Below, piece after piece: positions 3,246 through 63,830 of a stretch of DNA of 64,000 bases; position 1 is the stretch's first letter, and each line of letters starts with the position of its first letter. A program made the position numbers and the translations under genes. The stretch is from a virus (lineage: Duplodnaviria; Caudoviricetes): IMG/VR virus record IMGVR_UViG_3300033802_000250. One strand, given 5' to 3'. The notes below the pieces were generated by a model. The model had not been told where the DNA came from and made no database searches. It saw only the letters and a list, made by a program, of their open reading frames with translations.

Positions 3246-3269
3246 CTCTTTGCGTGACAACGCAAAGAG
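3246..3269. repeat. GACA-loop hairpin motif copy
   Basis: CTCTTTGCGT-GACA-ACGCAAAGAG, 10-bp stem. Confidence 0.85.
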
Positions 3270-3278
3270 AGCACCCCT

Positions 3279-3620
3279 TTACGGAGTGCCCTCTTTATTT
3301 TCGACAAGCGTAAGTGGCGTATAGGTAACGTAATTCATAAACCGGAGATCAAGCGGGAAGCGCCCCTTTTGGTAAAGTTCCCGTATGTACTCCAGAATGC
3401 CGGGAATGTGGATGTCCTCGAATCCGGCCTGCGTATAGAACGACTTGAAGCTGTTGCTTCCGATGTAGACGCGCGTGATCTTGTGCGCCGTCTCGCCCTC
3501 GAAGCATTTCCTCAGCTTCGCCTCGATTTTCGGAACTTCTTCGTCGATATCGAAATCGTGGTGAATCACCCACGCAAATCCTTCAATCTGCACTTCGTTC
3601 CCTGTGAGTGCGAAGTTCAT
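3279..3620 (-). CDS. Hypothetical protein
   Basis: 113-aa ORF with RBS. Confidence 0.7.
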   Translation of the reverse strand: MNFALTGNEVQIEGFAWVIHHDFDIDEEVPKIEAKLRKCFEGETAHKITRVYIGSNSFKSFYTQAGFEDIHIPGILEYIRELYQKGRFPLDLRFMNYVTYTPLTLVENKEGTP

Positions 3621-4227
3621 ACTTCAATTCTCCTTCTTCCGCCCCGACTTGTGTTTGGCCGGGGGCTCCGCTTACTTTGCTGTCGGGTTTGACCCAACGG
3701 CAGGATTGACGCTCACAACGGAGCGCGTACTGATCCGTGCCCGGCAGATGCTCCATATACATTTCACCGCCGCAATGGCACAGATGTTCTTGATCCATCT
3801 CGAAGAAGACGAGCGGTTTATGGTAAGCGAAATTCCACTTCCAGAAGGCGTCTTTCTCGCCGCACTCCTCGCAGACAACTTCGCATTCGGGCCGGTCGAT
3901 CAAATCATATTGCACATCGTTCCACTCCGACGACGGGAATCCGACAGCAACGCCGTCTACTGACATCTGAAGCAGATATCCCTGTGCATGATCCTGTCCG
4001 ATCTGAATATTCGGCGAACAAATCATCTTGTGCGCTTGTCCGCAATAAGGACACCTGAAGTGTAGATCCCGGGGCGGAACAACATGCGACATGTTCTTGA
4101 TCCGTTGACGACGGCGTTCCTGTTCCGATACTTCGTTGTTTTCAAGAAACTGCTCGTGATAATAACGGATCTGGAACTTGTGTTTGAACGGCAGTTTATT
4201 CCAAAGCCCCTTCAACCAGTTCAACAT
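3583..4227 (-). CDS. Zinc-ribbon hypothetical protein
   Basis: CPYC, CEEC and CHC..C motifs. Confidence 0.7.
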   Translation of the reverse strand: MLNWLKGLWNKLPFKHKFQIRYYHEQFLENNEVSEQERRRQRIKNMSHVVPPRDLHFRCPYCGQAHKMICSPNIQIGQDHAQGYLLQMSVDGVAVGFPSSEWNDVQYDLIDRPECEVVCEECGEKDAFWKWNFAYHKPLVFFEMDQEHLCHCGGEMYMEHLPGTDQYALRCERQSCRWVKPDSKVSGAPGQTQVGAEEGELKYELRTHRERSAD

Positions 4228-4233
4228 CAGGTA

Positions 4234-4563
4234 TCACTCCTTGATACGGGCTTCTCTGATCACTCCGGTTTCCCGATTCAGAACAAGCCCGATATTTCTT
4301 GGGATGCCGAGTTCCGCACGGATCTCATCCCAAACCGCTCGTTCTTCCAAAAAGATAGTTCCAAGTTCTTGCGTCATCATGGACAGCATTCCTTGGACTC
4401 CTTCGCGTTTCGCTTCAATCTTCCGCATTTTGTCCAGCAAGCTCGGCGGACATTGGTGCGTTTTTCCCGGGACAATCTGCGGAACCTTATCCCCCTCGAC
4501 AGTCGTTACCGTCTTGACGCCGAAATGGCTCCAAAAGCCAAGCAGTTTTTCGACGATTTTCAC
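4234..4563 (-). CDS. Hypothetical protein
   Basis: GTG start after AAGGAGG. Confidence 0.65.
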   Translation of the reverse strand: MKIVEKLLGFWSHFGVKTVTTVEGDKVPQIVPGKTHQCPPSLLDKMRKIEAKREGVQGMLSMMTQELGTIFLEERAVWDEIRAELGIPRNIGLVLNRETGVIREARIKE

Positions 4564-4576
4564 AATGAATGCCTCC

Positions 4577-5098
4577 TTATACTTCATGATACCAGCCAAG
4601 TACATGATTGCGAATGCGTAACTGCTTCTCGTGCGTATCAACCCATTGTGTGGAGAACCACTCGGCTTTCGTGTACTCCTCCACCATAATCGGTTCCCCC
4701 GTATCTTCCGTCGTTTCAACGGGCGGATCCACTGTTGTATCCCAAAAGAGCGGATTCCCATCCGCATCTTTTTTCTGTACCTCGACTTTGGTGTTTTCTC
4801 GATACGGGATAGGATCCAGATCCGGGATAACCGGTGCATCTTTGATGATTTCAAAGTGAGGCCAATACACATACCGGGCACAGATGGGCGTGCCGTCTTC
4901 CTGAATCAATTGGTAATCGCAATGGATACCTTCACTTGGTTTCAGTTCGCAGACGGCCCGCCGTTCATTCTTGAGCCCGTGTTCAAAGAACCGATTTTTG
5001 AAGTAGTCGCATTGATTATCAGCTTCCGTTGGGGTGGTGTAGCCGCGTGTGCGATCAAGACTCCCATTCAATTTCGGTCTCATCGTCAACAATCCCAT
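4577..5098 (-). CDS. Hypothetical protein
   Basis: 173-aa ORF in operon. Confidence 0.65.
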   Translation of the reverse strand: MGLLTMRPKLNGSLDRTRGYTTPTEADNQCDYFKNRFFEHGLKNERRAVCELKPSEGIHCDYQLIQEDGTPICARYVYWPHFEIIKDAPVIPDLDPIPYRENTKVEVQKKDADGNPLFWDTTVDPPVETTEDTGEPIMVEEYTKAEWFSTQWVDTHEKQLRIRNHVLGWYHEV

Positions 5099-5768
5099 CG
5101 TCAGGCTGAAGGTCTTGCTCCCTCAGCACCGTTTTCCCGCTGACAAGTTGGCTAATAAACGTCTTGTCGGCAGTTTGCGCCAGATGCGGCTGGTGCGTCA
5201 CCATGATAATTTGGCGATCAAATGTCTTGCCGATGAAGTCAACGAACTCGCCAAACTTCACGATGTAATCCTCTGATACGTGCTTGCCCGGCTCATCGAG
5301 CAAGATCGGGCCTTGTATCTTAGGATTATTATATACCACCATCGTTGCCACTTGGAGTGCCGTTGCGACAATGTCATTTACGCCACCGCCGCGCGAATCC
5401 TGCGGCTCGTTCTTGATCTTCTCGCCATTCGGATTCTCACTGACAACATAGAAGTTGGCAACCGGTTTTCCGCCGGATTCGGCCAGTTCGATCTCGAAGG
5501 TGAAGGACGGCCCGAATACGGATTGTAATGCCTTCGTAACAACCTTCTCCATCCGTTGCCTGCCGGATTCCCGGGCGGCATCGGCGGTTGCGATCAGCGT
5601 CGAAACCACCTTCTCCAGATGGAGTTTGGTTTGAGCCCGCTTGTCGATTTTGTCCTGCTCCGCATCGCGTTCCTCCACAAGCAGATCATGGGCCGCCTGC
5701 CGCTGAGCGTAATGCTTCTCCAATTCGTGGAGCCGCGTTTTAAACAACTCCGTGTAATGGCTCGCCAT
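5055..5768 (-). CDS. SbcC/Rad50 C-terminal half (ABC ATPase signature and Walker B)
   Basis: Short coiled coil, SRGGG signature, ILLDEP Walker B, IIMVTH H-loop; no Walker A. Confidence 0.88.
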   Translation of the reverse strand: MASHYTELFKTRLHELEKHYAQRQAAHDLLVEERDAEQDKIDKRAQTKLHLEKVVSTLIATADAARESGRQRMEKVVTKALQSVFGPSFTFEIELAESGGKPVANFYVVSENPNGEKIKNEPQDSRGGGVNDIVATALQVATMVVYNNPKIQGPILLDEPGKHVSEDYIVKFGEFVDFIGKTFDRQIIMVTHQPHLAQTADKTFISQLVSGKTVLREQDLQPDDGIVDDETEIEWES

Positions 5769-6490
5769 CAGAACACCTCCATTCTGTGAAAGACGACCTC
5801 CAGCTTATCAAGTGCCTTCGGCTTGTTGAAACGAATAGCATTTGCGATACGTTGCTCCCATTGTTCGGCGTGCGAAGGATCGCGAAGTTCAAATTCTGGA
5901 TCCACCCGAAGCAGGATCGACACCTGCCGTGGATAATCCATGAATAGCGTCTGCACCGACGCAATGCCTTCGATGGAAGTCAGCGCATGAACCAGTGTAT
6001 CCATGAAACTGACATTGACGACGTTATGCTCAATCGGCTGTTCTTCTTCCTGTGTTTGGCTTGCCCGCCGCTCAACAACCTTTAGGAACTGTTCGTAGAT
6101 GACATCCATGAGGAACTGGTAATCATCTTCGCTGAGTTCAAAATGCTCGCCGAGCGGCGATGAGGTGTGCCTTATCATGTTTCGGATAACCTGCTGGAGC
6201 AACTTCCGGTTGTTGATGTACGCCAATTGTCCATCGGCATAATATGCGTTGTAATCCTCGAAGAACGGCTTACCCGAATTAGGCTTGGTAGTTACGTGGT
6301 ACATTCCGCCATTGGTTTGGACAAATCCATCCAATGAATCGAACACCTGTTGCTTGATGTTCTTGAACAGATCGTCCACGTTTACGTTAAGGGACTGAAG
6401 AAATTCTGTACCGCCACTGTTGCTGTTTGATTTCTCTGGCGGCTCATTCGTCCTCGTCGTCTTCATCGTCATCACCCGGCAGGCATTCAC
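5768..6490 (-). CDS. Hypothetical protein (start uncertain)
   Basis: About 235-aa ORF coupled to its neighbours. Confidence 0.65.
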   Translation of the reverse strand: MNACRVMTMKTTRTNEPPEKSNSNSGGTEFLQSLNVNVDDLFKNIKQQVFDSLDGFVQTNGGMYHVTTKPNSGKPFFEDYNAYYADGQLAYINNRKLLQQVIRNMIRHTSSPLGEHFELSEDDYQFLMDVIYEQFLKVVERRASQTQEEEQPIEHNVVNVSFMDTLVHALTSIEGIASVQTLFMDYPRQVSILLRVDPEFELRDPSHAEQWEQRIANAIRFNKPKALDKLEVVFHRMEVF

Positions 6491-10350: not shown

Positions 10351-10399
10351 GAGACCACCTTCGTTACATAATGTGTACCAAGAGGTAATGCATTATGCC

Positions 10400-10912
10400 T
10401 CAGTCCCACTCAATCGGTTCGTCGTCGTCCCAAATGATGGGTTCATCATCGGGAATGACGCGCTTCTTTTTCTTCTTGATGGACTTGGCTTTTTCCTTCT
10501 TCTTCAGCAGTTTGATGTCGTCCAGACCGACGCGGTACATCCGATGGCCGGTTTCGTCATAGGGCTTGTCCAACTTTAACTGGATCGGGTACAAGAACGA
10601 AAACGGCAAGTCGTTGATCGAAATGTATTCGACCGTTCCCTTGATGCCGAGCGACAAAACCTTCACGCGGTCGCCGACTTTCGGTACGAAATACCTTCTG
10701 CTCATCTGCTTCACCAACTCTCCGACAAAATCAGGATCGAGCATGATGGATGGTGTCCACGCTTCGGTTTTGGTTCCATCCTCCCACTCTACATCTACCC
10801 GTGACAACGGAGAAAAGATCTTCGGCACGCCGGTCACGACTCCTTTGCGCCGCCATACCCGATCCATCACCCGGTCGCCGACATAATAATGACCGCGTTT
10901 GCGCTTCATCAT
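10400..10912 (-). CDS. Hypothetical protein with two SH3/KOW-like repeats
   Basis: VGDRV...KGVV and VGDRV...KGTV repeats; K-rich then acidic tail. Confidence 0.65.
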   Translation of the reverse strand: MMKRKRGHYYVGDRVMDRVWRRKGVVTGVPKIFSPLSRVDVEWEDGTKTEAWTPSIMLDPDFVGELVKQMSRRYFVPKVGDRVKVLSLGIKGTVEYISINDLPFSFLYPIQLKLDKPYDETGHRMYRVGLDDIKLLKKKEKAKSIKKKKKRVIPDDEPIIWDDDEPIEWD

Positions 10913-12714: not shown

Positions 12715-13323
12715 TTACGCGGCAGGGTCGTCCTCGTTTTCCTTCTCTTTGCGCTTGGCTTCGATACGCTGGATTTTCTTCTCCAGCCAATCCAGAAATT
12801 CTTCAGCCTGCGTTTGCAGAAGTTCGTTGAACTCCTCTGCCCCGGTTTGCTTTTCCATCCAAGTGTACAACTTGGCGTCGGATATCTTCGCGGCCTTTGC
12901 CATCCGCTTGATCTTGCCGATGATTTTCGGGTCTGCCAGATCCGGCTCGTAAATGAGCAGTTCCTCCTTCGTAACCATGTCAATGTTGAGATAGTCACGA
13001 AGGGCGCGGCCTTTGGCCCGGGTGAGAGCCATGCGCGGCGCGTGCGGGCCGACCATTTTGTTGCAGTTGCGTTCGCTGGCGTCCGCTTCTTCCATGCCGA
13101 CAATCTGGCCGTTCTTATCGTAGATCTCCGCGCGGGCAAAGGTTGTCCACTTGTTTTCCGCGCAGGGATACTGCGTAATATAGGCCCGGATGTGGCCGAA
13201 GTCGGGTTGCTGATGCGCCAGCGCCAGCAGGCCGGGATACTCCACAAATTCCTTGCCCTTGAGGTTCTTGATGTACTTCTTACGGAACTCATCCGTAAGC
13301 TCGGGGCGCTTCTTCTCGGCCAT
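12715..13323 (-). CDS. Hypothetical protein, possibly an ssDNA-annealing protein
   Basis: MALTRAKGRALR motif recalls Rad52/Redbeta-like annealases; unverified. Confidence 0.45.
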   Translation of the reverse strand: MAEKKRPELTDEFRKKYIKNLKGKEFVEYPGLLALAHQQPDFGHIRAYITQYPCAENKWTTFARAEIYDKNGQIVGMEEADASERNCNKMVGPHAPRMALTRAKGRALRDYLNIDMVTKEELLIYEPDLADPKIIGKIKRMAKAAKISDAKLYTWMEKQTGAEEFNELLQTQAEEFLDWLEKKIQRIEAKRKEKENEDDPAA

Positions 13324-13381
13324 TGATTTCATTCCCTTCTGTTACTTATTATATAACATATTGTAACACTCTGGCACAACT

Positions 13382-19406: not shown

Positions 19407-19443
19407 ATTCTGTTCAACCTCCTTGGATTGGTTTGTGATCGTT

Positions 19444-19480
19444 GTTACCCTTAGTATTACCAGTTGTAACGAAGTTATGC
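19444..19480 (-). promoter_or_regulatory. Repeated phage promoter motif
   Basis: GCATA-N5-GTTACA-N3-GGTAATACTA-N3-GTAAC. Confidence 0.7.
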
Positions 19481-19495
19481 ACTAAAGAAACAACA

Positions 19496-19522
19496 CCCCT
19501 GAACGGGACACCGTTCAAGGGG
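19496..19522. repeat. GACA-loop hairpin motif copy (terminator-like, after HU)
   Basis: CCCCTGAACGG-GACA-CCGTTCAAGGGG. Confidence 0.85.
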
Positions 19523-19551
19523 TTGCTCCTTCTGCCGGATCGAGCCGGAAA

Positions 19552-20222: not shown

Positions 20223-20514
20223 AGATACCACCTCCTTCGACGAAGCGAATGAGAGAGGAGCCGTATTTCTCGATCTCTTGAAAATGCCTGTCGGGAATGA
20301 TCGTCACCGGCTCCACTCGTTGCAGTTGAACAAAGTCGGGGTTGACATCATACTCGACGCCGTTGATCGCGAGAGTCACAAATTCGTCCTCATTGATGCG
20401 ACGTTGTTTCTTCGCGATCTGATTGCGGATGACCAGATACTTGTCCGCCGCCGTGTAGAACTCGACCAATACACCGTGGCCGAACGAAATCAGCACCTTG
20501 ATGATGTGTTTCAT
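20200..20514 (-). CDS. Hypothetical protein
   Basis: 104-aa ORF coupled to the dnaE stop. Confidence 0.7.
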   Translation of the reverse strand: MKHIIKVLISFGHGVLVEFYTAADKYLVIRNQIAKKQRRINEDEFVTLAINGVEYDVNPDFVQLQRVEPVTIIPDRHFQEIEKYGSSLIRFVEGGGIYVKQSEA

Positions 20515-23500
20515 AATGCTTCTTCCTCCTCATCGTCGTCCTCGAAATACTTCGACAGATCGTCCTTCCGCTTCTTCTTACCCTTCAGTTTGTCTTCCAT
20601 CAGTTCTGCCATCGGATCCTTGCGCTTCTTCGGCTTCATCTGCTCTACGACGGGCAGTTCCGGCTCCTCTTGAGTCTGCGGCTTGGGCTCATCGTTGATG
20701 CCGAGTTCACGCTTCAGCTTTTTGGTCTTCTGCACGAGAATCTTGCTTGCAATGAACTTTTCTTGCCGCTCGCCCTTGTAGTAGGTTTCCTCCTTGTAGC
20801 CGCGCACAACCACAATATTGTCCTTGTACAAGTGCTGAGCGTATTCATCGTAAACATCCGGGAAGACCGTTACCTCGATGGGCTCCAACTGCGTCTCCAG
20901 TGTGAGGAAGGCCATCGGTTTGCCCTTCTTGGTCTTGATGATCTTGGCCGATATAATACGGCCTCCGATATCGTAGAAGACTTTATCCCGCCGCCGGGAG
21001 AGTTTCATATCTTGAAGCGGCGTAAACGGAAGGTCTTCATACGGGGAGCCGGACACATACACACCGATCAATTCACGCTCCATCTCCAACGCCTTCTTGT
21101 CGTTGAACTCCTTCTCGTTCCACTTCACCGAATGGGTTGCTTTCGCTTTGTCCTTCTCCAAAGTCTCCGGCGTACCCGTCCACACTTTGTCCTTGCGGAT
21201 GGTGAAATTGTAATAGTTCAGGAGCTTGTACCGGTTCTTTTCAAACCGGTCGAAACATCCGGCGGAGATCAGCGTTTGGTAGTGGTTGCGTTTGACTTGG
21301 CTTCCCTTGAACGTATGACGCTGTACGAAGTCGTCGAAGGATTGGTACGGGCCATTCTTCTCTCGCTCGTTGACGATTTGGTTGACCGTCGCTTGACCGA
21401 TTCCGGCAATCGACAGCAGGCCGTATCGGATGCCGTCTTTCTCCGGTGCGAACTCCGAGAACGAACGATTTACATCTGGCGGCAGAATCTTGATGCCGAG
21501 CCGCTTGGCTTCCTTCAGGTTGTCGAGCGTCTTGTCGGCCTTGTCGCCGCGCACGCTGAGAAGGGCGGTCATGAACTGCACCGGATAGTGGCACTTGAGG
21601 TATGCGGTCTGGAATGTTTCGTCCGCATAACACCCGGAATGCGGCTTGTTGAAGGCGTACCCGGCGAACTTCACCATCTGCTTGAACAGATTGCGGGCAA
21701 ACTTCTTGTCGTACCCCATCTTGAGTGCGCCCGGGATGACGTGTGCCGCCATCGCCTTCTTGGTTGCCTCCAGTTCGGCCTGAATTTCCGGCTTAGTCAG
21801 TTCGATGTCGTTCCCGTCATACTTGGATTTCACGCGGATGACTTCGTTGCCATCCTTATCTTTGAACTTGGGCAGGCTGTCGTATTCGGCAAGCAGTTTT
21901 TCCCACTTCTTGACGACATACTTGTGCCCATACATGAACTCGTCATACAGCTTCTTTACATCGGCGATCTTCTTCTTGCCGATGACGCGCCGGAAGCTGT
22001 CCGCGTGGCCGAGATTGTATCCGGCCACGCGCTGGACGATGCTCATGACCTGTTCCTGATAGATCATCTGCCCCCGAGACTTCCGCAGGAACTCGCGGAT
22101 TTCCGGGCGAACCTCCTTCATGTACTCCTGCGGCTTCCGGCTACCGTTGATGACGTACTGTTGAGCGATAGTATTACCATTCTCCAGCACGGCATCGAGC
22201 GGCCCCGGACGGTAAAGCGCCAGAATGTCGATGATCTCATCCTGTGTTTTGGGCTTAACCTGCATGGTGTACTTCGTAATGCCGCCACCGTTGATTTGGA
22301 ACAACCCATGTGTGTTGCCCTCTGCAATGAATTTGAACGTTTCCGGGTCGTCACGTCCGATTTCGTACAGATCGACTTCTTCGCCGGTACTGGAGCGAAT
22401 CAACTCCAACGTCAACGAAATGATGCGAAGCGTAGACGTACGGAGCAAGTCCATCTTCAGCAGGCCAACTTCTTCACAGTCGGGATAATCCCACATCGTA
22501 ATCGGCAGTACGGCCTTGGAATCTTCACGCGGCATGATCGTCGGGCAATCGAGCGCAAGCGGTCGCCGCGAGATGATGACACCGCCCGCATGAATGCCGG
22601 ACGTTTGGATACACCCTTCGATTTTGGCAAGCCGTTCGTTAAGCTCGGGATACTTCAACATGAGGCGACGGAACTCCTTGGATGCCTCGATGAACTTCGG
22701 CAACTCGGATCCATACTCCTCGTATTTTTCCGGCCTTTCGGCAATCTCCATCATCTTCTGGTAAGTACAATCCGACTGGTCAGGCATCTTGCCTTGGTCG
22801 CCCGCGATTTCCAGCACCGCGCCGATCTCGTCGGCGACTTTATATCCGTAGGCAACCACCTTACCGCTCTTGTCCTTCTTCTCCAGCGCCTTACAGATGC
22901 CGTTGACGGCAGAGCGAAGCTTGTACTTCGTAAAGGTAAGAATCTGCGCCACCCTGTCTCTGCCGTAGCGTTGCGCCACAAAGTCGAGAAGCATTTCATG
23001 ATTCGTCCCGTCGAAGTCGGTCGGTTACACCGCCCCTTTCGGGGTACTTTAACTCCACGTCACTGCGTGGACGGCCTAGACTATACCATCGTCTCCATAC
23101 ACCCTGCTCCGCCAAACAGGGCTTGTTTGTATGGTCACGCCCCTTGGTAGTCGTTGGGGGCTTCCCATATCCCAAATTGGGACTTAGGGCTATCCCTGCT
23201 GATTGCCCATTGTCACGATCCTGCTCGGTTGTACGTTCAGGATCATCCTCCAACTTATTTCTGCTCTCGCTCCGTCACAATACCCTTTCGAGTATTGCTT
23301 TGGCATGGAGGCTTTAGGGCTTCCCAGCATATTCGGGGTACGCACGCCACCTCTCGGAAGCGTGGGACTGTTTGATAATGCAGTAGCGTTCATACTTGCG
23401 TTCAAGGTATATAGTCGCATCGCGATACATATATTCTCCGGCAGTAATCAAATCATCTATGGCTCCAAATTGCAATTATCACGCTACAAGCATTATCTTC

Positions 23501-24927
23501 CAATCAATGTCCGGCGGACTGTTCCGATACGGATTCAGGAACCGCTCGAACATGAAGTCGTACTCGATAGGATCGAGCTTGGTGATGCCGAGCAGGAACG
23601 CGGTAATCGCGCCCGCCGCCGAGCCCCGGCCCGGGCCGACATAATATTGCGGATAGAACTCGTATTTGGCGTTTTCCGGGTCGGCTTTTAGCCACGCGGC
23701 GTTCGGTGCGTAGGATTTCCACTTCTTCCGGTTGGTTGCCCAAAGAATGATGTCCCACAGGATCAGGAAGTAGGAAGGGAACCCCTTCATGACGATAACG
23801 TCCAGTTCAGATTCGATGCGCTTGATGTACGTCTTGATGTTGATGCGTTTCTTCTTTTTACGCATCTTCTGGACGTATTCGAGGAGATTGTCATACATGA
23901 GTTTCCGCAGGTACGTTGTCGGAGTATGACCTTCCTCGCAGTATGGATACTCCGGCATCAGGTTTTTGCCGAGTTCCAGATCGACATTACACATGTCGGC
24001 GATTTTGCAGGCGTTCTCAATCGCCTCGTACGGGATGTTGTTCTCATCGGCCCAATCATACACTTCCTCCGCCGACGCTAGATGGTAGGTATTGGTGCCG
24101 AGATAAGGAGCGCATTCGTAAATGGTCTGTCTACGCCCCATCGCAACGAGCGTATGATGAGCATCCTTGTCTTCAGGCCGGACGTAATGCACGTCCTTGG
24201 CATAGACCAGCGGGATTCCCGTCTCCTCGCTCATCTGAATGAGTTGCATGTTGACCATATCCTGCTCCCGGCTACCATTATCCTGAATTTCCAGATAGTA
24301 GCCGTAGAACAGTTTGCTCCGGCGAATCGCTTCCTTCTTGGCCTTCTCATATTCCCCGGCGAGGAGCAGGCGCGGGATGTATCCGGCCAGACATCCGCTG
24401 GTCGCGATGATGTTCTTGCCGTAGCCGTTTTCCTCGATAAATTTCATATCCGTCCGGGGCTTTTTGTAGAACCCTACCGTATTGGCGTCGGCGATGAGCG
24501 CTTGCAAGGCGGCCCAACCTTCGTTGTTGACCGGAAGCATCGTGATGTGATAGATGCCGTCTTGGACTTCCTCATCCTCACTTTGCTTCGTCTTGCTTTT
24601 CTTGAAAGCGTCCTTCACTGTCCGGTCGGGGGATTCATACATTTCACAGGCCGGTATGAACTTGAGGCCATGCTTTTTGCACGCCTTCTTCATCTGAATC
24701 ACGCCAGATATGTTGCCGTGATCCGTCAGCACCAGCGTATCAATCCCGATTTCAGCCGCACGTTTTGCAAGCTCCTCGGGTTTCGCCGATGCGTCGCTGA
24801 TCGAATAAATACTGTGGTTGTGGATATGCACAACCCGCAGTTTATCCGGTCGTTTGCGCTTTTTCGTATTCAGTTTTTTGGCCTTCTTGGGTGTCGATTC
24901 TTGATGTTCGCAACATTCTTTCGCCAC
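20511..24927 (-). CDS. dnaE: DNA polymerase III alpha subunit, join(24927..23503,23021..20511), about 1311 aa
   Basis: PHP motifs HIHNH and TDHG, GRGSAAG, FERFLNP; splicing restores PDID|TDF; HAGGV, KMDLL, YAFNKPH and OB domain. Confidence 0.95.
23022..23502 (-). ncRNA. Group I self-splicing intron in dnaE (481 nt, no ORF)
   Basis: Exon 1 ends in U, intron ends in G; P AAUAUGCUGGGAA, Q GGCAAUCAGCAGG, R CAACGACUA, S GGUAUAGUCUAG. Confidence 0.92.
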
Positions 24928-27847: not shown

Positions 27848-27874
27848 GACATCCCTCCTTTCTTGAAAAGCAAA

Positions 27875-27896
27875 GCTCCCCGTGACAACGGGGAGC
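27875..27896. repeat. GACA-loop hairpin motif copy (terminator-like, after groES)
   Basis: GCTCCCCGT-GACA-ACGGGGAGC. Confidence 0.85.
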
Positions 27897-31757: not shown

Positions 31758-32354
31758 TTATTCGTTACCATCAGTATTTCCCGATGTAACGTTGGTTATA
31801 CATTCGTCGTCGCTGATGTAGCCTTCGGATGTGATGACGATAATTTGAAACTTCTTTCCGTCCGCTTCGATCTCATGTTTGCCAAGCAGACGGGTCGCTC
31901 TTGTGTTGACGGTTTCCCATTTGCCTTCGGACGATTTCCAATACACCGCAACGATGATATACTGCTTGCCGGTTTGGAGCACTTCAATAGAGGTTCTGTA
32001 TTCGCCGCCAAGCAGTTCTTCTTCGTAGAAGCCCACCATGTTGGGCAGGGTATAATCCTTCAGCGGCTTTGTGCCTCGCAAGAATCCGATGATGTCCTTG
32101 GCTTTGTCTTGCTGGATCACAATTACCGCCGTATCGTCGAAGTTCGGGTCACAGATGACTTCATGGAAAAACTGCTCTGTGACGAATGCTTCGATGCGAC
32201 GTTCGCAGTTTGCGCAGGACGGATATTGTATCGGAGCGTTCGGATCTACCTGCGGGCGCCACTCATTCGTCGTCAGATTCACGAGCACCGGCATACACTG
32301 GTACACACGAAACCAGTCATTGCCGCAGTACGGACAGACCTTGTTGTCAGACAT
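31758..32354 (-). CDS. Zinc-ribbon hypothetical protein
   Basis: CPYC and CANC. Confidence 0.7.
   Translation of the reverse strand: MSDNKVCPYCGNDWFRVYQCMPVLVNLTTNEWRPQVDPNAPIQYPSCANCERRIEAFVTEQFFHEVICDPNFDDTAVIVIQQDKAKDIIGFLRGTKPLKDYTLPNMVGFYEEELLGGEYRTSIEVLQTGKQYIIVAVYWKSSEGKWETVNTRATRLLGKHEIEADGKKFQIIVITSEGYISDDECITNVTSGNTDGNE
31764..31801 (-). promoter_or_regulatory. Repeated phage promoter motif
   Basis: GTATA-N6-GTTACA-N3-GGAAATACTG-N3-GTAAC. Confidence 0.65.
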
Positions 32355-32441
32355 GAGGATTCATCTCCTTTCAGCGGGTGGTAATCGGGTGTGGTAATCT
32401 TTATAACCACATCCTCATCTCGCATCGTACATTGCAAATCT

Positions 32442-32457
32442 TGACGCGACAGCGTCA
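32442..32457. repeat. GACA-loop hairpin motif copy
   Basis: TGACGC-GACA-GCGTCA. Confidence 0.8.
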
Positions 32458-34420: not shown

Positions 34421-34437
34421 GTAGGCTCACTCCTTTC

Positions 34438-34475
34438 GTTACTGATAGTATCTCCACATGTAACGGTGATTATGC
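34438..34475 (-). promoter_or_regulatory. Repeated phage promoter motif
   Basis: GCATA-N6-GTTACA-N3-GGAGATACTA-N3-GTAAC. Confidence 0.7.
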
Positions 34476-34483
34476 AGAGCAAA

Positions 34484-34505
34484 GCTCCTCGGGACACCGA
34501 GGAGC
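34484..34505. repeat. GACA-loop hairpin motif copy
   Basis: GCTCCTCGG-GACA-CCGAGGAGC. Confidence 0.85.
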
Positions 34506-34540
34506 CGCCCAACATTTGCTATTCAGGTTTGCCACGCCCT

Positions 34541-34578
34541 GTTACTTGCAGTATTACCGAATGAAATACAGATTATGC
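34541..34578 (-). promoter_or_regulatory. Repeated phage promoter motif
   Basis: GCATA-N6-ATTTCA-N3-GGTAATACTG-N3-GTAAC. Confidence 0.6.
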
Positions 34579-37258: not shown

Positions 37259-37348
37259 TGGAGCGGGAGGGTGGATTTGAACCACCGAAGCTCCTCTGGA
37301 GCAGAGTCTTGCAGGACTCTTGCGTTTATCCGACTTCGCTACTCCCGC
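37259..37348 (-). tRNA. Atypical tRNA A (Cys-like GCA and U73, long variable arm, 6-bp stem with 6-nt anticodon loop)
   Basis: GCGGGAG/CTCCCGC acceptor, AGAGTC-CTGCAA-GACTCT, GCTCC/GGAGC variable arm, GGTGG-TTCAAAT-CCACC, TCCA. Confidence 0.75.
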
Positions 37349-38781: not shown

Positions 38782-38857
38782 TGGTGCGCCCGGCAGGACT
38801 CGAACCTGCGCCTCCGATTTTAGAGATCGACGTTCTGACCAACTGAACTACGAGCGC
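38782..38857 (-). tRNA. Amber suppressor tRNA (anticodon CUA)
   Basis: Canonical 76-nt cloverleaf GCGCTCG TA GTTC..GAAC G TCGAT-CTCTAAA-ATCGG AGGC GCAGG-TTCGAGT-CCTGC CGGGCGC ACCA. Confidence 0.93.
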
Positions 38858-41566: not shown

Positions 41567-41574
41567 TTCCCTTC

Positions 41575-41612
41575 GTTACCATTAGTATCCCCAATGGTAA
41601 CACGTCTTATAC
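41575..41612 (-). promoter_or_regulatory. Repeated phage promoter motif
   Basis: GTATA-N6-GTTACC-N3-GGGGATACTA-N3-GTAAC. Confidence 0.7.
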
Positions 41613-44165: not shown

Positions 44166-44179
44166 GTTGCTTCCCTCCC

Positions 44180-44216
44180 GTTACTCATAGTGTTACCAAA
44201 TGTAATGGGGTTATGC
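44180..44216 (-). promoter_or_regulatory. Repeated phage promoter motif
   Basis: GCATA-N5-ATTACA-N3-GGTAACACTA-N3-GTAAC. Confidence 0.7.
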
Positions 44217-44220
44217 ATCG

Positions 44221-44541: not shown

Positions 44542-44566
44542 GATATCTCCCTCCTTTCGACACATC

Positions 44567-44584
44567 ATCTCGCGACAGCGAGAT
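44567..44584. repeat. GACA-loop hairpin motif copy
   Basis: ATCTCGC-GACA-GCGAGAT. Confidence 0.8.
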
Positions 44585-44937: not shown

Positions 44938-47144
44938 CTGCCTTCTCCTCCTTCCGCTTTTTCTTCGACTTCTTGGCGATCTCGCGATGAACTTGTGACG
45001 ATGCCTCATCGTTTTCAATGACAAAGTCGAATGCGGCCTGCTTGTCCTTCAGCTTGGTGAGAATCTGCTCATCGACCATACCACGATTGATGAGGTTGAT
45101 GATATAAACTCTGTCGTGTTTGGAATCCAGACGACGAATCCGGTATTTTCGCTGTTCCCAAATAGCAGGCGTGTCCGGCAAGTCATAATTGATGAGATAC
45201 CGGCCCGCTTGCAGATTGAGACCAGTGGATCCGGCTTGGTTTGCAATCATCACACGACATCGCGGGTCTTCATTGAATTTGCGTTTGCGGCGGTCTCGTA
45301 CTTTGTCACTGAGGCCGCCGACGTAACGCACCGCCTTGGTGAACTCGCTGACCGCACGGTGCAACAGCACCGTCATCCGGCGGCTTTCTGTGAAGATGAC
45401 GACCTTGTGGCCGCTATCTACGATCTCCTGCACGAGTTCAATGCAACGCTCGAACTTCGGGATACTCATTTCGTCCTTGACCATGAAATCCCGGTATCGC
45501 TCGCGTGTCGCTTCGTTCGGAGACATCTTCCATAGGTTCGGATGGTTGCTGGCGATGCGGCGCTGGCTCAAGACAGACTTCAGCCGGTCGCCGATCATCT
45601 TCGCCTCCATCTTCTTGCCGGACTGAAGCAACTTGTTACGGGCGTCGATCAGTTCCTTCTGATACTTCAGAAGTTCCTTGTCAGCCTTCAATTGCTTCGG
45701 ATGCGGATCAATGTAAATGTCGTCTTCCACGATCTTCGGAAGGGACATCTCGATCTCCTTGTCGGTGCGCCGGATAAAGAAGTTCTGCGTGCGCCGCCGG
45801 AGTTTGTCGAGATTCTTGTACCCGACAATATCCTTGTAATCGTTCATCACACAGAACATGTCGCGGAAATCACGCCAGTTGCCGAAGATTTCTTCGTTGC
45901 CGGTGCGCACAATACCAAAGATTTGATCCGGGTAATTCGTAATCGGCGTGCCGGATGCATAAATGATGTACTGGATGCCTTTGTTGTAGCCTTTCTTGTG
46001 CCGCTTGGTGCGGGGCTTAATGAGCATCGTAGCCGCCTTGTTTGTCTTCGAGAGCTTGTTGTTGATGAAATGTGCCTCGTCGAAGATAATCATGTCGAAT
46101 CCGACTTTTTCAAAAAGGGTTTCATTTTGCTGAAGCGCCTGATAGCTGGCGATCATGAACATCGCATCGGAGTTCCTGAAGTTCTCGATGAACTGGCGCT
46201 TCTGTTGATCGACCGTTACCGATACTTTCCGCTTGCCGCGCACGGTTTTGTATTTTGCACGGAAGTCGGAAAAGACGACGGCTTTCTCGTAGGTGAACTT
46301 ATGCACCTCGTCGCGCCATTGTGTGCGAAGCGGTGCCAACACGATGCAGAGGACTTTCTTCACGAGCCCTTCCTGCTGAAGCTGTTTGGCGGCCATAATG
46401 CATTGAAAAGTTTTTCCTGTCCTAGATACCGTCCCTTTCGGGATACTTTAACACCGCTCGAAGCGGTCGGAGTAGACTATATCATCACCGCCGTAAGGCG
46501 GGCCGTGCGTTTCGATTTAAGGGGTTTTCACCCACCTGCCTATCGGCAGGCCCTACTCCTATTGGCTGTTTCCAGCCCGATGGGATAGTCGTTGAACCTT
46601 CCCCATATCCATTCGGACTTAGGGGCTTGGATGCGTGGTTGCCCAATCCCACTCATTTTTTATGGTTAAGCCGCATTCACGTTTACCTTTCGGTTCCGTT
46701 GTAGCAGAGTGGGCTCTAAGGGTGTTCCCGCAGTTAGCACGGTTTTACATGGGCTACATGAGTTTAACCCATGAGGTCTCCGAGGATGACGATACGGCGC
46801 TTCTTCATGCTGTAACACATGAAATTAGCACCGAACAACTGGAAGTCGTACGGAGGGAGTTTTAACCCTTCAATGGGCACCGGCTTAATTTTCTTGAAGA
46901 CCTTCGGTGGCTTCGGCGGATCAATGCCAAGGATTTCGTGTCTTGGTGTCTTGTAAATCAGTTCGCCGTAGAACTCCTCGTCGAGATCCTCTGCGGATTC
47001 AATCGGGAGAATCCAGTACGGATCATCGTCGCCGCCCCACCGGGCTCCGTCGATTTTGCGTATTCGTTTCTGGTAGGGGAGATAGTACGGGACTTTGACC
47101 TCCAGAAGATCATCGTCCCGTCTATCCACAAAGATTCCCGGCAT
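44924..47144 (-). CDS. SNF2-family helicase, join(47144..46767,46420..44924), about 624 aa
   Basis: Splicing restores Walker A GDLMG|TGKT; DEAH, SGTP, GLNLQ and QRKYRIRR motifs. Confidence 0.92.
46421..46766 (-). ncRNA. Group I self-splicing intron in the SNF2 helicase (346 nt, no ORF)
   Basis: P1 CAUGGGU/GCCCAUG with U-G at the splice site; P AACUGCGGGAA, Q GGCAACCACGCA, R GUUCAACGACUA, S GAUAUAGUCUA; terminal G. Confidence 0.93.
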
Positions 47145-48763: not shown

Positions 48764-48809
48764 ATCACATCCTCCTCAATAAGATAGGGGCCGCCTTGGC
48801 CCCGGTCGT

Positions 48810-48847
48810 ATTAGTATCAGTATTTCACCGTGTAACGGCAGATATAC
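48810..48847 (-). promoter_or_regulatory. Repeated phage promoter motif
   Basis: GTATA-N6-GTTACA-N3-TGAAATACTG. Confidence 0.6.
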
Positions 48848-48853
48848 AATTCT

Positions 48854-48869
48854 GCCCGTGACAACGGGC
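48854..48869. repeat. GACA-loop hairpin motif copy
   Basis: GCCCGT-GACA-ACGGGC. Confidence 0.8.
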
Positions 48870-55510: not shown

Positions 55511-55545
55511 ACCCGTCGCATCCTTTCATTCCATAGTCATAACAT

Positions 55546-55559
55546 TCCGTGACAACGGA
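55546..55559. repeat. GACA-loop hairpin motif copy
   Basis: TCCGT-GACA-ACGGA. Confidence 0.75.
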
Positions 55560-55747
55560 GCAGACTATAAAACAAAGAAAGCGACGGGTTTCCGTCACTT
55601 CCTCCGTGGGGCTATAACGTTAACGTTTTGGATCGCCGTTCGATTGCCACGGTGCAATGGCAATACCAACAGCAATGGTAGGCGAAACGGTCAGCAAAGA
55701 CTTTATAAGCGGGAAGCCATTGCTGACAATCGAAGCAGTAACGAACG

Positions 55748-56071: not shown

Positions 56072-56273
56072 AAGAACATTATACATAAAATGAATGATAC
56101 GGGCTATGTGTTCCATAGCCCGGGCCGTTCTCGGCCAGCGAGTTTAGTGGTACATGAAGAATCAGGCCATGCGTCAGCATGTAATGGTGCCACTTCATTT
56201 CTAGGCCGTAGCCAGCCCGAGATTGTTCTCAATCACCGAAGATGCAAAGAACAGGAAATTGCGTCGCGGGCGC

Positions 56274-56536
56274 GACGGACTTCAAGGTTCAGCACCCATG
56301 CCCTTTATCGGTTATTCTGGCCATTACCGATCAGTGGACTTCGGAACGGTGTCGTTTACTGGATGAGGATACGTTTCGGAGACGGACTTGGTGCGATTTC
56401 CTCGCTTTGCCGTACCTTTTCTCCTCCTGCATACTGCCACCGGGTTTGCAAGACCCGCCTCGTCGTATGTCCAAGGTCTCTCTTGGCCTTTGAGAGACTA
56501 GCGACACCTGCATAGGTGCTGAATGTGAAGCCCGTC
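56274..56536 (-). ncRNA. Candidate structured ncRNA of about 260 nt
   Basis: About 27-nt imperfect terminal inverted repeat and several internal stems. Confidence 0.55.
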
Positions 56537-57084: not shown

Positions 57085-57122
57085 AGTTGACACCTCCTCA
57101 CGACATATGCTGGTAAGCAATG

Positions 57123-57142
57123 CGCCCCGGGACACCGGGGCG
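57123..57142. repeat. GACA-loop hairpin motif copy
   Basis: CGCCCCGG-GACA-CCGGGGCG. Confidence 0.85.
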
Positions 57143-57148
57143 TCATGC

Positions 57149-59650: not shown

Positions 59651-59680
59651 AGTATATTGTGACAATGTCGCCATTGTCAA
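59651..59680 (-). promoter_or_regulatory. sigmaA promoter with overlapping inverted repeat
   Basis: TTGACA-N18-TATACT; TGACAATG-N4-CATTGTCA. Confidence 0.7.
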
Positions 59681-59707
59681 CGACAACGAGTCAAAATGTA
59701 ACAGCGA

Positions 59708-60376: not shown

Positions 60377-60437
60377 TTGCACATTCCTCCTTGAAATATT
60401 GGAATTGGTATTGCTGATGATGGAATCATCAAGCCTT

Positions 60438-60451
60438 CCCGCGACAGCGGG
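60438..60451. repeat. GACA-loop hairpin motif copy
   Basis: CCCGC-GACA-GCGGG. Confidence 0.75.
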
Positions 60452-60455
60452 GCCG

Positions 60456-61135: not shown

Positions 61136-61166
61136 AATTACAGCCTCCTTGTGCGAAATACGAAAT

Positions 61167-61196
61167 CAGGGCGGCCCGGGACACCGGGCCGCCCTG
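61167..61196. repeat. GACA-loop hairpin motif copy
   Basis: CAGGGCGGCCCGG-GACA-CCGGGCCGCCCTG, 13-bp stem. Confidence 0.88.
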
Positions 61197-61202
61197 TCCG
61201 TG

Positions 61203-61697
61203 TCACGTACGACGTGCACGACCGAGCGTCGCAAGGTCGATGACCGATTCGGCGATGTACGCCGTCGCATCGACAATAGCGTGCAGAGCGCGGCCCGCCG
61301 TGCCGAACGTCGCGTCAAGAATGCGATCCAGACCGGTCTGTTCATCATGGTTTTGCTTGAGCTTGCGGCTCTGAGCTTTCGCCATAACCGGGGCCGGAGC
61401 GTCACTGAGGTTGTGAACCATTTTTTCGAGGTTTTTGATGCGATGATCGTGATCGTCGAGCCGCTTGTTGACGGACTTCATCACTTTATCGACGTACGCC
61501 TTTTGCTCGGCGGTCGCATCCGCAACACATTGCCGGATGAAGGCGCTTTGGTCGAACCGTTCACCGGACTCGCCGTCTTCGTTCTCATCGTCATCATATT
61601 CGTCGCCATCGACAACTTCGATGTCTTCGTCCTCGTCGATATCGAAGTCTTCGTCATTGACGTTGACGACATCTTCTTCCTCACGTTTCTTCGGCAT
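61203..61697 (-). CDS. Hypothetical protein with acidic N-terminus
   Basis: 164 aa with AAAGGAGG RBS. Confidence 0.75.
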   Translation of the reverse strand: MPKKREEEDVVNVNDEDFDIDEDEDIEVVDGDEYDDDENEDGESGERFDQSAFIRQCVADATAEQKAYVDKVMKSVNKRLDDHDHRIKNLEKMVHNLSDAPAPVMAKAQSRKLKQNHDEQTGLDRILDATFGTAGRALHAIVDATAYIAESVIDLATLGRARRT

Positions 61698-61986
61698 GGT
61701 CTCTCACCTCCTTTCGTGACAAATTTGTGAACATTCTGTGACAAGGGTTACAAATACGGAAAAATGCCGATTCTGTTATATATTTATGGAGGGGTCGTTC
61801 GAGGACTCAAACCCACAGGAGAAAACAAAACCACCACAGCCGGTCTGGTGGTACACGGTACGTTGCACCAGCGGTACGACTCCTCGCTGAAAAGCATAAT
61901 TGCGTAAGACAAAGCGTACTGGAACATAACCAGCGTACCAATTCGACTCGGGGGTCTATTCAAGGGGGCGGGAATGCCTCAATTCT

Positions 61987-62002
61987 TGCCGCGACAGCGG
62001 CA
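61987..62002. repeat. GACA-loop hairpin motif copy
   Basis: TGCCGC-GACA-GCGGCA. Confidence 0.8.
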
Positions 62003-62169
62003 GACAGGCACAAACAAATGGTGTGGGCAATGTTCAAATGCAACGTTCACACCTGTTTGGCAGGATGAATGTCATCGGTGAGATTCACCCTGCCAAACAG
62101 GCACCGATCAGACCATACAATGCATGATCGGTGCAGGATTTCCGATTGCGGTTGACAGTCAATGATGGC

Positions 62170-63093
62170 TTACGCAGATCGTGCGGCTTTGACGGCGAGC
62201 GCGTCGCACCGGTTGTTCAACTCGTCATTGGCGTGGCCTTGCACATGCTTGACCTTGACCTTGTGGCCGCCGTTCTTGATGAGTTCGACAAGCTCTTTCC
62301 ACATGTCTTTGTTGGCGACCGGTTTGTTGTCGGAGGTCTTCCAGCCATTCTTCATCCAACGCTTCAGGCGGCCTTCGCTGAACGCCAGCGCAACGTATTC
62401 GCTGTCCGTGTGGATATGAACTTCGCACGGAACCTTCAGCACCTTGAACACCTCGATGACGGCACGCAACTCCATTTGGTTGTTGGTGACACCTTTGGTC
62501 TTCACACCGCCGAACTTCACGCGCTCCTCATCTTTGTACCGCGCAATGAATGCCCATCCGCCGCGTGCGTTGCTTCTGCCGTTGCCTTGGCACGCGCCGT
62601 CCGTCCATGCCTTTACCACAGGCAATCCGCTTTCCGGCTTCTTTGCCATAAACATGTCCCATCCTTTCATAGCGTCGAGCAGATATTCGCAATCGTCGAT
62701 GAGCGATTGCCGCCCGCGCGTTACGTATTGTTTGATGATGTCGGCTTGGCAGTTCTGCGTGCGCCGACCACGAAACTTGTCCGTGAACTCCTCAAATTGC
62801 GAAGCAAACTTCACCAGTTCGGGATGATCGTCAAGATACTTGAGCCAGAGGAGTTTATACCACTGGCTCAGGAAGTGTGCGGAATACCGCTGACCGTTGA
62901 TGATGAGGTGTGTCGGTGCTTTGCCTTTGGCTTCTCTCACGGACATCGGTTTGATCTTTCCGAAACGCTTGGAAAGCTGATACCATTCTTCGATGGTTTT
63001 CGTCTTGCCAAAGAGGCGCACACGCGCATAATATGCAGAGAAGCGGGTGTCGCCTGCCGAACTGCATTCAAGGGTCTTCTTATGCTTCATCAT
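62170..63093 (-). CDS. rnhA: Ribonuclease HI fused in frame to an N-terminal NADAR-like phage domain
   Basis: TDGAC.GN, TNNQMEL, TDSEY, W..NGWKT, VANKDMW and N.RCDALA motifs; N-terminal CSSAGDTRFSA..IEEWYQ..K. Confidence 0.85.
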   Translation of the reverse strand: MMKHKKTLECSSAGDTRFSAYYARVRLFGKTKTIEEWYQLSKRFGKIKPMSVREAKGKAPTHLIINGQRYSAHFLSQWYKLLWLKYLDDHPELVKFASQFEEFTDKFRGRRTQNCQADIIKQYVTRGRQSLIDDCEYLLDAMKGWDMFMAKKPESGLPVVKAWTDGACQGNGRSNARGGWAFIARYKDEERVKFGGVKTKGVTNNQMELRAVIEVFKVLKVPCEVHIHTDSEYVALAFSEGRLKRWMKNGWKTSDNKPVANKDMWKELVELIKNGGHKVKVKHVQGHANDELNNRCDALAVKAARSA

Positions 63094-63469
63094 TGTCAGC
63101 CGCTTCCAAAACGGAGAAGAAGATAACTTCATGTTTCGGGAACGGTTCATCAACGCCTTCGAGGTAGATGTGATGGCGCGTCACCTTGTCCACGACACCT
63201 CTGCCGGAACGATCCATGCATTGGAGGGCTACAATCATGCCGGGCATGATTGCATCGTCGATGGTTTGCGGATTCCGCGTGACTTGTTCGGGCGGCAGTT
63301 CCATCATGCGGCGGAGATCCAGTATGATGTGCGGCAGTTGCCGGGCGATTTGCAGGGAATCCTTCAGGTCGAGATTCTCGACTTCAACTTCAAGCGAATC
63401 CAGCTTGAACTCTGCGGGCAACTCCGGTGCATTGATGGTCAGTCCGTTGATTTTCACCTTGTAATTCAT
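63080..63469 (-). CDS. Hypothetical protein
   Basis: 129 aa with AAGGAGG RBS. Confidence 0.7.
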   Translation of the reverse strand: MNYKVKINGLTINAPELPAEFKLDSLEVEVENLDLKDSLQIARQLPHIILDLRRMMELPPEQVTRNPQTIDDAIMPGMIVALQCMDRSGRGVVDKVTRHHIYLEGVDEPFPKHEVIFFSVLEAADNDEA

Positions 63470-63579
63470 GGCGATATGCCTCCTTGTGAAATTTGGATTA
63501 GAGCCGCATCTTGTTCGCTGGCCCTGCTCGTATGAACAAAAAAAGAGAAGGAGATCGGCCCCGGATCGGAGTCGATCAT

Positions 63580-63780
63580 TTAGCGAAGCCCGAGTTCTTG
63601 CTTCGCGGCTTCGATAAACTCACGCTTCACAACTTTGGACGCCTGCCGCCACGACACCATTTCCTGTTGGCGGGATCGGGCACGGTCGTACAAGATGTGA
63701 GCCATATGCACGATATCGTGGTCACGAATATGGTGGGAAACCATCGTTTCGTAATCCAGTTCATGCAATGCAATAGCCAT
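63580..63780 (-). CDS. Hypothetical protein
   Basis: 66 aa with AAAGGAGG RBS. Confidence 0.7.
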   Translation of the reverse strand: MAIALHELDYETMVSHHIRDHDIVHMAHILYDRARSRQQEMVSWRQASKVVKREFIEAAKQELGLR

Positions 63781-63812
63781 CGGAATATCCTCCTTTCGTA
63801 TCTCATCACATC

Positions 63813-63830
63813 CGCCCGGGACACCGGGCG
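63813..63830. repeat. GACA-loop hairpin motif copy
   Basis: CGCCCGG-GACA-CCGGGCG. Confidence 0.85.

Follow-up and report, generated by a model that had tools for sequence, protein, structure and literature searches.

Introduction

Hairpins processed by RNase III lie between the early genes of phage T7 and in Bacillus phage SP82, and Bacillus has, besides textbook intrinsic terminators, weak ones that are assisted by NusA and NusG. Hairpins also serve as promoters of the phage N4 virion polymerase, a T7-like enzyme; there are three of them near one genome end, each a small hairpin with a 3-nt loop, conserved tip bases and a freely covarying stem, followed by a T-rich spacer and a G at a fixed distance (PMC4496689). 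The Ssn NTS/SRM repeats are oriented, dispersed hairpins with a short conserved tag (PMC11893778). The nearest precedent for what we report comes from Thermus phage P23-45, in which the termination sites of a two-barrel virion polymerase have a conserved 26-nt motif in common (bioRxiv 10.1101/2022.12.01.518664). A single-chain RNA polymerase, akin to YonO and to the eukaryotic RNA-interference polymerases, is encoded by phages of the Bacillus phage 0305phi8-36 group, and the promoters and terminators of that enzyme are not known (PMC2147016, PMC5467207). Here we describe a family of small hairpins with an invariant tip that is dispersed, in one orientation and mostly behind stop codons, along 64,000 nucleotides of DNA from a virus of the Caudoviricetes (IMG/VR record IMGVR_UViG_3300033802_000250; this whole stretch is called the window below), and we follow the family into related phages.

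The genes mark the window as the arm for replication and early functions in a jumbo phage of soil bacilli that measures ~208 kb and is related to Bacillus phage 0305phi8-36, the closest record, in which DNA polymerase III alpha is 64% identical and gene order is equal. A gene for an RNA polymerase of 1205 residues, which belongs to the RdRP family (PF05183, YonO-like), ends at ~63892, at the right edge of the window.

Results

A hairpin family on one strand

The original prediction listed hairpins of the form CG-N-GACA-N'-CG with a fixed orientation, all of them intergenic except a weak one inside a coding sequence. Scanning the window with the pattern CGNGACANCG returned exactly those 14 positions, with loops starting at 3256, 10803, 19507, 27884, 32448, 34493, 44574, 48860, 55551, 57131, 60443, 61180, 61993 and 63820; 13 are intergenic and the copy at 10803 lies in an open reading frame (ORF). 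GACA is on the + strand in 14/14 copies, with none reversed, and N and N' are complementary in every one. Among the intergenic copies the closing pair is T-A in four, G-C in five and C-G in four, as counted before.

This number is far above chance. First-order Markov sequences in which N/N' complementarity was required held a mean of 0.45 copies and a maximum of 3, and when all 256 loops were considered in the same simulations the commonest loop reached at most six copies in any run. The runner-up loop in the CG-N-loop-N'-CG frame of the window occurs four times. Read on the gene strand, where the loop is TGTC, there are 16 TGTC-loop hairpins with a stem of at least 4 bp and none on the other strand; of ~135 perfect hairpins with a stem of at least 6 bp, 11 have the TGTC loop and every other loop is represented at most three times. 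The proposed intergenic enrichment is also borne out, with 13 of the 14 copies falling within the ~8% of the window that lies outside minus-strand ORFs.

The credible genes of the window are on the minus strand without exception, and the transcript therefore reads C-G-N, loop UGUC, N'-C-G. For the same reason the window alone cannot separate orientation with transcription from orientation with the replichore.

An invariant tip and downstream box on a covarying stem

We numbered positions on the gene strand from the T of TGTC (+1) and aligned copies on the loop. In the window, G(+12) is present in 14/14 copies, T(+16) in 13/14 and G(+17) in 12/14. A gap-free alignment of 54 copies from six phages, called A2, has an invariant C, G, loop T and C, C and G; G(+17) is at least 90% conserved, and T(+16) and G(+12) at least 70%. 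The typical unit is ~29 nt long and consists of an 8-bp stem closed by G(+12), a 4-nt loop, three variable bases, and TG followed by A or T, with this TG(A/T) box at +16 to +19; some copies have longer stems. The unit thus extends beyond the hairpin tip from which the family was first recognized.

The earlier claim that the outer stems differ in sequence yet pair holds across the alignment. In A2, 79% of stem cells pair, versus 57% in shuffles, and the covariation score is 0.61 versus 0.19, a value reached by 0/500 shuffles; slid-register controls gave scores of 0.11 to 0.24. All four Watson-Crick pair types are present at four stem positions, and at the eighth stem pair 20 copies have C-G and 13 have U-G. 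Hairpin free energies range from -4 to -31 kcal/mol. No conserved boxA-like block was found upstream of the hairpin, A2 columns 1 to 9 being unconserved. Because the outer stems have wholly diverged with compensating changes while eight positions of the tip, and with them the TG box, stay invariant throughout the 54 copies, selection appears to act on the tip and the box.

We also asked on which strand the hairpin folds, counting wobble pairs at stem positions flanked by more Watson-Crick pairs and re-pairing 5' and 3' arms between copies as a control. Embedded G-U pairs on the transcript strand number 18, versus 2 A-C pairs, which would be G-T pairs on the template strand; partner shuffles expect ~6.5 of each (P = 0.0025 for the G-U count). 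The bias is strongest in 0305phi8-36 (11 versus 0) and not significant in the window's own lineage (6 versus 2). Folding of the transcript strand is thus moderately favored by the wobble bias, and the pair counts agree weakly. Of the two mechanisms offered in the original prediction, an RNA-level site and a hairpin in template-strand DNA, the former is mildly favored by this result.

Relatives keep the tip and change the middle of the loop

Relatives were sought as polymerase homologs in a protein collection, and the neighborhood of the polymerase gene was examined in each. The stretch whose polymerase is 90% identical (L066) holds seven copies with the loop TGTC, and that at 61% identity (L067) six clear copies with the same loop. 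At 50% identity (L068) there are six copies with TGGC or TAGC, at 45% (L072) nine with TAGC, and at 42% (L073) no such family, with 0 copies in the stretch. Every copy in the L066, L067, L068 and L072 stretches is on the gene strand. An 8.5-kb metagenome contig (L054) from a distant relative, with a RecJ 69% identical to that of the window, carries one TGTC copy with a 4-bp stem and with G(+12) and the TG box intact. This contig was the one match in a search of metagenome contigs for close relatives; phage records gave no match, IMG/VR gave only 0305phi8-36, and the plasmid collection was without a close relative of the polymerase.

The TGTC family was not found in 0305phi8-36. This phage instead carries CG-N-TCGC-N'-CG in 21 copies, every one of them on the gene strand of the right arm with none on the other strand, and mostly with a TGTA box at +16 to +19. 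Below 144 kb the pattern search found no copy save one in the terminal repeat (71-80 / 212540-212549), which lies ~70 nt inside the inner boundary of the repeat and is therefore just as far, ~70 nt, from the physical left end of the genome. The element is also missing from the distal part of the same-strand arm past the primase gene. In the window's phage, one further copy lies upstream of the RNA polymerase gene, beyond the window (L062:5451-5460) and 447 nt from the upstream stop codon, in a place comparable to that of the terminal-repeat copy of 0305phi8-36. The structural arm, which is transcribed in the opposite direction, starts ~16 kb beyond the window; no copy was found on either strand in the 10 kb of it that were sampled (L065), nor on either strand in the 8.6 kb left of the window.

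Every lineage keeps the flanking C-G and G-C pairs, loop bases U(1) and C(4), and the TG box. Loop positions 2 and 3 vary between lineages and are uniform within a genome, at 15 to 21 copies per genome. Because these two positions are lineage-specific and uniform per genome, we suggest that selection comes from a reader evolving together with the phage; such a pattern would not be expected from hairpin stability alone. The idea of a recognition element made of both structure and sequence, with an invariant tip and downstream box on a stem that varies with compensation, is strengthened by this behavior of the middle loop bases.

Copies are anchored to stop codons

In 0305phi8-36 the core starts a median of ~10 nt past the stop codon (5 to 14 nt in 12 copies, 26 to 50 nt in four more), and the distance from core to next start codon ranges from 25 to 492 nt. 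In five spacers with the next start at least 69 nt away, the hairpin sits beside the stop. Window copies lie 2, 6, 11, 12, 16, 16, 16, 25, 38, 65, 73, 170 and 190 nt past the stop codon, with a median of ~16 to 25 nt and five copies further off; their distance to the next start codon is 29 to 292 nt. This anchoring would fit a gene-end signal better than an N4-type promoter or boxB-type antitermination, the RNA mechanism originally suggested.

Some spacers also hold a phage promoter-like motif, and in these the hairpin comes first in 5/5 clear cases. The motif, approximately TTACA, 4 to 6 nt, GG-N-A-ATACTA, 3 to 4 nt and GTAAC, sits just upstream of ribosome-binding sites, and GTTAC and GTAAC of the motif form an inverted repeat. 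On the minus strand of the window it occurs at 48764-48868, 44166-44220, 41567-41606, 34421-34572 (two copies), 31764-31789, 19440-19470, 13293-13381 and 10351-10399. It matches an intergenic motif of 0305phi8-36, presumably the 21-bp phage-specific promoter candidates published for that phage (PMC2147016).

Behind the HU-like gene the two phages have orthologous spacers, with a U-rich tail, the promoter motif and the start context in common; the hairpin in this spacer is an ordinary one in 0305phi8-36 and a TGTC hairpin in the window. The window also has ordinary GC-rich hairpins in equivalent spacers that run from stop codon through hairpin to ribosome-binding site. Most 0305phi8-36 copies are followed by a T-rich tract, with four to six T in nine copies, and the authors of that genome named the copy after orf81 a terminator (PMC2147016). 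The metatranscriptome contigs, which are short and of low depth, include none that spans or ends at a copy.

A proposed signal for pausing or ending transcripts

We favor, at a probability of roughly 0.45, the reading that the element is a phage-specific signal for transcript pausing, termination or attenuation, read by a phage factor that would most plausibly be the RdRP/YonO-type polymerase. Each copy would act as a two-part signal at a gene end, on the level of the transcript. As it emerges, the RNA would fold into the ~8-bp hairpin, and its tip, made of the C-G, G-C and N-N' pairs and the U-N-K-C loop, would be read specifically. The reader would probably be phage-encoded, with the phage's own RNA polymerase as the first candidate. 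A second possible reader is a 259-residue protein encoded beside the polymerase gene (L062:4224-5003), a candidate nucleic-acid-binding protein with a Rho_N motif at residues 3-31 (33.7 bits, above the Pfam cut-off). The U-G(A/U) box, 12 to 15 nt past the loop, would lie approximately at the active site of the polymerase at the moment of hairpin formation; together, hairpin and box would make the polymerase pause and release the RNA with variable efficiency. The outcome would be a hairpin-protected 3' end directly after the stop codon, and downstream genes without a promoter of their own would be expressed through read-through. As a lead, G(+7), U(+16) and G(+17) would match the elemental-pause consensus of multi-subunit polymerases (G-10, Y-1, G+1), and in that register the hairpin would presumably stand ~10 nt behind the RNA 3' end.

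The comparison with P23-45, made by description rather than by sequence, shows the likeness and its limits. In P23-45, too, a conserved motif stands at many gene ends of the early region in a phage with a non-canonical two-barrel polymerase; the text on that phage, however, does not describe the 26-nt motif as a hairpin, the two polymerases have only a distant relationship, and the P23-45 sites come from mapped 3' ends and ours from sequence comparison (bioRxiv 10.1101/2022.12.01.518664).

Several observations weigh against a signal of this kind. Stems read in antisense pair nearly as well as those of the transcript (76% versus 79% of cells). In the loop, the bases shared by all lineages are exactly the ones that yield G-N-N-A on template DNA, as would fit a DNA mini-hairpin: the template-strand loops are GACA, GCCA, GCTA and GCGA, G-N-N-A in all five lineages, and sheared G-A DNA mini-hairpins form from loops of the G-N-N-A class, those of GABA type being stable (PMC13037366). 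Two window copies are near the downstream start codon and far from the stop, and both come after another terminator-like hairpin. Copies of the window lineage, L067 and L068 are mostly without a U-tract; of the eight copies in 44-64 kb, a simple terminator scan accepts only one; and several hairpins have low stability (-4 to -9 kcal/mol). The TG box is foreign to ordinary terminators and speaks against plain termination. Finally, since in many spacers the hairpin is followed by too little sequence for a promoter, a terminator there would need to be leaky; the downstream genes in these short spacers must depend on read-through, cleavage or initiation at the element.

The family has apparently not been described before. 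The literature on 0305phi8-36, the 2007 Virology genome paper not being covered, mentions the 21-bp promoter motif and single terminators only, and no such family; a text search for the 0305phi8-36 core sequence gave unrelated matches only. With 15 to 21 copies of ~29 nt in each genome, the family provides a well-defined candidate signal that can be mutated, and it does so in a phage and host that can be cultured. Should the tip be read by the polymerase or another phage factor, it would be a new case of sequence-specific control of transcript ends that depends on a hairpin tip, and a compact orthogonal part for expression engineering in bacilli.

Processing, initiation and other readings

Cleavage of polycistronic RNA is unlikely in our estimate. 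A nuclease would recognize the hairpin tip and cut at the U-G(A/U) box, leaving an upstream message with a protective 3' hairpin and a downstream message that starts a few bases before a strong ribosome-binding site. The fixed distance from tip to box is consistent with this, as is the frequent direct adjacency of box and ribosome-binding site, seen among others in 0305phi8-36 at the copies that precede orf34 and the primase gene. Weak hairpins without U-tracts in the L067 and L068 lineages pose no obstacle, short spacers need no promoter, and the wobble strand bias and stop-codon placement fit equally well. RNase III sites resemble the element in being repeated, similar hairpins in early gene-to-gene spacers that would leave protected 3' ends, but RNase III substrates span about two helical turns and stems of ~8 bp are too short for that enzyme. 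No other candidate nuclease was identified, and termination is indicated instead by the T-rich tracts of 0305phi8-36 and by the HU site, where an ordinary terminator takes the place of the element.

A promoter resembling those of N4, close to the template-strand hairpin of the original prediction, is doubtful. Supercoiling would extrude the palindrome, and a polymerase would bind the template-strand G-N-N-A hairpin with its sheared G-A pair and start at the conserved G ~5 nt past the stem, giving short leaders before the ribosome-binding sites. The G-N-N-A loop in all five lineages would suit the idea, given the behavior of GABA-type loops (PMC13037366). The hairpin, the ~5-nt T-rich spacer and the G resemble the layout of N4 promoters, which likewise mix conserved and freely covarying stem bases and have a template-strand loop able to close by a sheared G-A pair (PMC4496689). 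In the window, a start codon comes 33 to 44 nt after the end of six or seven copies, and one copy follows a separate terminator-like hairpin behind the polymerase gene. RdRP/QDE-1-type polymerases favor single-stranded templates (bioRxiv 10.1101/2020.03.07.982082), and YonO has no known promoter (PMC5467207); in the SPbeta region between published primer-extension primers for the YonO promoter we saw no similar hairpin, which carries little weight as the exact start site was not located. However, the wobble pairs favor the opposite strand, 18 to 2, and the 0305phi8-36 copies track stop codons rather than start codons. The element always stands ahead of the other promoter-like motif, and the orthologous HU site has an ordinary terminator. 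Copies also lie upstream of the polymerase gene itself, and the record note for gp99 does not list gp99 as a virion protein. The difference from N4 extends to 15 to 21 copies in place of three and to 4-nt loops in place of 3-nt loops; no T7-like polymerase was seen among the ORFs scanned, which cover part of the genome, and the polymerase beside the window is of the PF05183 RdRP/YonO-like kind.

Equally doubtful is a combined stop-and-start signal, or a start signal, of the RdRP/YonO-type polymerase, in which a template mini-hairpin would recruit the enzyme, transcription would start at the G of the TG box, and the RNA form would end the upstream transcript. If true, this reading would give the first promoter class for the RdRP/YonO polymerase family and a second, independent invention of hairpin promoters after N4.

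We consider it improbable that the copies are ordinary intrinsic terminators of the host polymerase, with no dedicated reader and with a tip shared by common descent or gene conversion. The 0305phi8-36 copies do look textbook, and some window copies likewise have T-rich tails behind a GC-rich hairpin just past a stop codon; generic hairpins stand in equivalent positions, and one interchanges with the element at an orthologous site. Ordinary terminators would nevertheless leave unexplained why outer stems diverged with compensation around eight tip positions and a TG box that are invariant over 54 copies. In contrast to intrinsic terminators, the element has an invariant loop and closing pairs, a TG box in fixed register, and middle loop bases that are uniform per genome and differ between lineages, and most copies of the window lineage are without a U-tract. 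Even as leaky ordinary terminators, the copies would correct the published transcript map of 0305phi8-36, in which most such spacers were counted as holding promoters.

A DNA-level signal apart from transcription, for priming, nicking or packaging on one strand of this arm, is very improbable: the strict one-strand orientation within one arm, the copy ~70 nt inside the terminal repeat boundary of 0305phi8-36 and the encoded DnaG-type primase are in its favor, but copies occupy gene-to-gene spacers right past stop codons and are absent from the distal same-strand arm beyond the primase gene, from the sampled 10 kb of structural arm, and from 0305phi8-36 below 144 kb except at 71-80.

Several known elements were compared and rejected. 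A sigma-A promoter formed by the TTG after the hairpin was dropped because at least five copies have a ribosome-binding site no more than 10 to 20 nt downstream, too close to fit both a -10 element and a leader. A sigma-54 promoter was considered because the L068 tip is similar to TGGCAC and has TTGC later; the spacing is 3 nt too long for the sigma-54 consensus and the palindromic stem would be unexplained. Lambda-type nut sites do not match: the loop has 4 nt (U-N-K-C) and is not a pentaloop, there are 15 to 21 copies per genome, and there is no boxA-like block. REP or MITE mobile repeats, which are alike from end to end and mostly occur in both orientations, are disfavored because the present copies have only eight tip and three to four downstream positions in common, with differing stems and a single orientation in two genomes. 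The Ssn repeats have the opposite pattern of conservation: NTS units conserve the stem together with an upstream CGTC tag and have a free loop, whereas our element conserves the loop and tip and leaves the stem free (PMC11893778). No GIY-YIG ssn gene was found among the ORFs scanned.

The individual copies of the window

All 14 copies are on the minus strand, and we take them in the direction of transcription. The first (63805..63830) combines a 7-bp stem and TGTC loop with a TGAT box; it comes after the stop of the RNA polymerase gene (~63892) and a separate GC-rich hairpin (63861-63883), with the next start codon 36 nt on. On the + strand (63813-63830) this copy is followed by TTTTGTGTTG and passes the terminator scan, and it could also stop antisense transcription. 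The second (61978..62002), with a 6-bp stem and a TGAG box, stands in a long non-coding spacer after an RNase H-like gene.

The third copy (61165..61196) has a 13-bp stem, with G(+12) and the TGAT box inside the 3' arm. It lies 16 nt past a stop codon, with 41 nt between its end and the next start, and it alone of the copies in 44-64 kb is accepted by the simple terminator scan. A natural loop variant of this hairpin exists: in one soil metagenome, an insertion and a deletion at 61177-61186 change the + strand loop from GACA to TGAC.

The fourth copy (60428..60451; 5-bp stem, TGAT box) is 6 nt past a stop codon, and its stem is short in three relatives too. An 8-bp stem forms the fifth (57116..57142), 11 nt past a stop codon and 43 nt before the next start. 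In the sixth (55536..55559) a 5-bp inner stem lies within a longer interrupted stem; a terminator-like hairpin (55572-55607) precedes this copy, which stands 37 nt before the next start codon. The seventh (48845..48869; 6-bp stem) begins 2 nt past a stop codon and is followed by a phage promoter-like motif, and the eighth (44559..44584; 7-bp stem) lies 12 nt past a stop codon and 29 nt before a GTG start.

The ninth copy (34478..34505) has a 9-bp stem and a U-rich tail and is flanked by two copies of the promoter-like motif. In this spacer (34421-34572) one motif is ~45 nt upstream of the TGTC hairpin and the second comes after it, and the first motif could drive a very short transcript ending at the hairpin. 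A 6-bp stem 25 nt past a stop codon makes up the tenth copy (32433..32457). The eleventh (27869..27896), with a 9-bp stem and a U-rich tail, lies 16 nt past the stop of a Cpn10/GroES-like gene and ends 33 nt before the next start codon. The twelfth (19492..19524) is located after the HU-like gene and before a promoter-like motif; its long stem includes one G-U pair and a bulge, and its tail is U-rich.

The thirteenth copy (10788..10810) is the weak one, with a 4-bp stem inside a 170-residue ORF; it keeps G(+12), and its box is TA. The fourteenth (3241..3269), with a 10-bp stem, is 16 nt past a stop codon and 35 nt before the start of the DnaG-type primase gene, and 0305phi8-36 has its own version of this copy in the same position before its primase gene.

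Other features of the window

The large ORFs of the window include those for the DnaG-type primase, an SbcCD-like nuclease, a UvrD-like helicase, RecA/UvsX, RecJ, a split DNA polymerase III alpha, a MoxR ATPase with its vWA partner, and an SNF2-related helicase. The polymerase III alpha (20511-24927, minus strand) is carried by two ORFs, 23479-24927 and 20511-22994, that are ~480 nt apart, with an HNH gene upstream; in 0305phi8-36 the polymerase III alpha gene is interrupted by a mobile intron. A group I intron match from Rfam (46451-46836, minus strand, 54 bits) lies beside the SNF2-related helicase ORF, and several metagenome variants are without exactly 46421-46767, as expected of a mobile intron. 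Rfam tRNA matches are on the minus strand at 38785-38857 and 37262-37348.

A non-coding stretch on the minus strand (56124-56358) is covered by a metatranscriptome contig at a depth of ~39, versus 2 to 6 elsewhere. It has no Rfam match and ends at an ordinary GC-rich hairpin (~56090-56113), and it may be an abundant small RNA.

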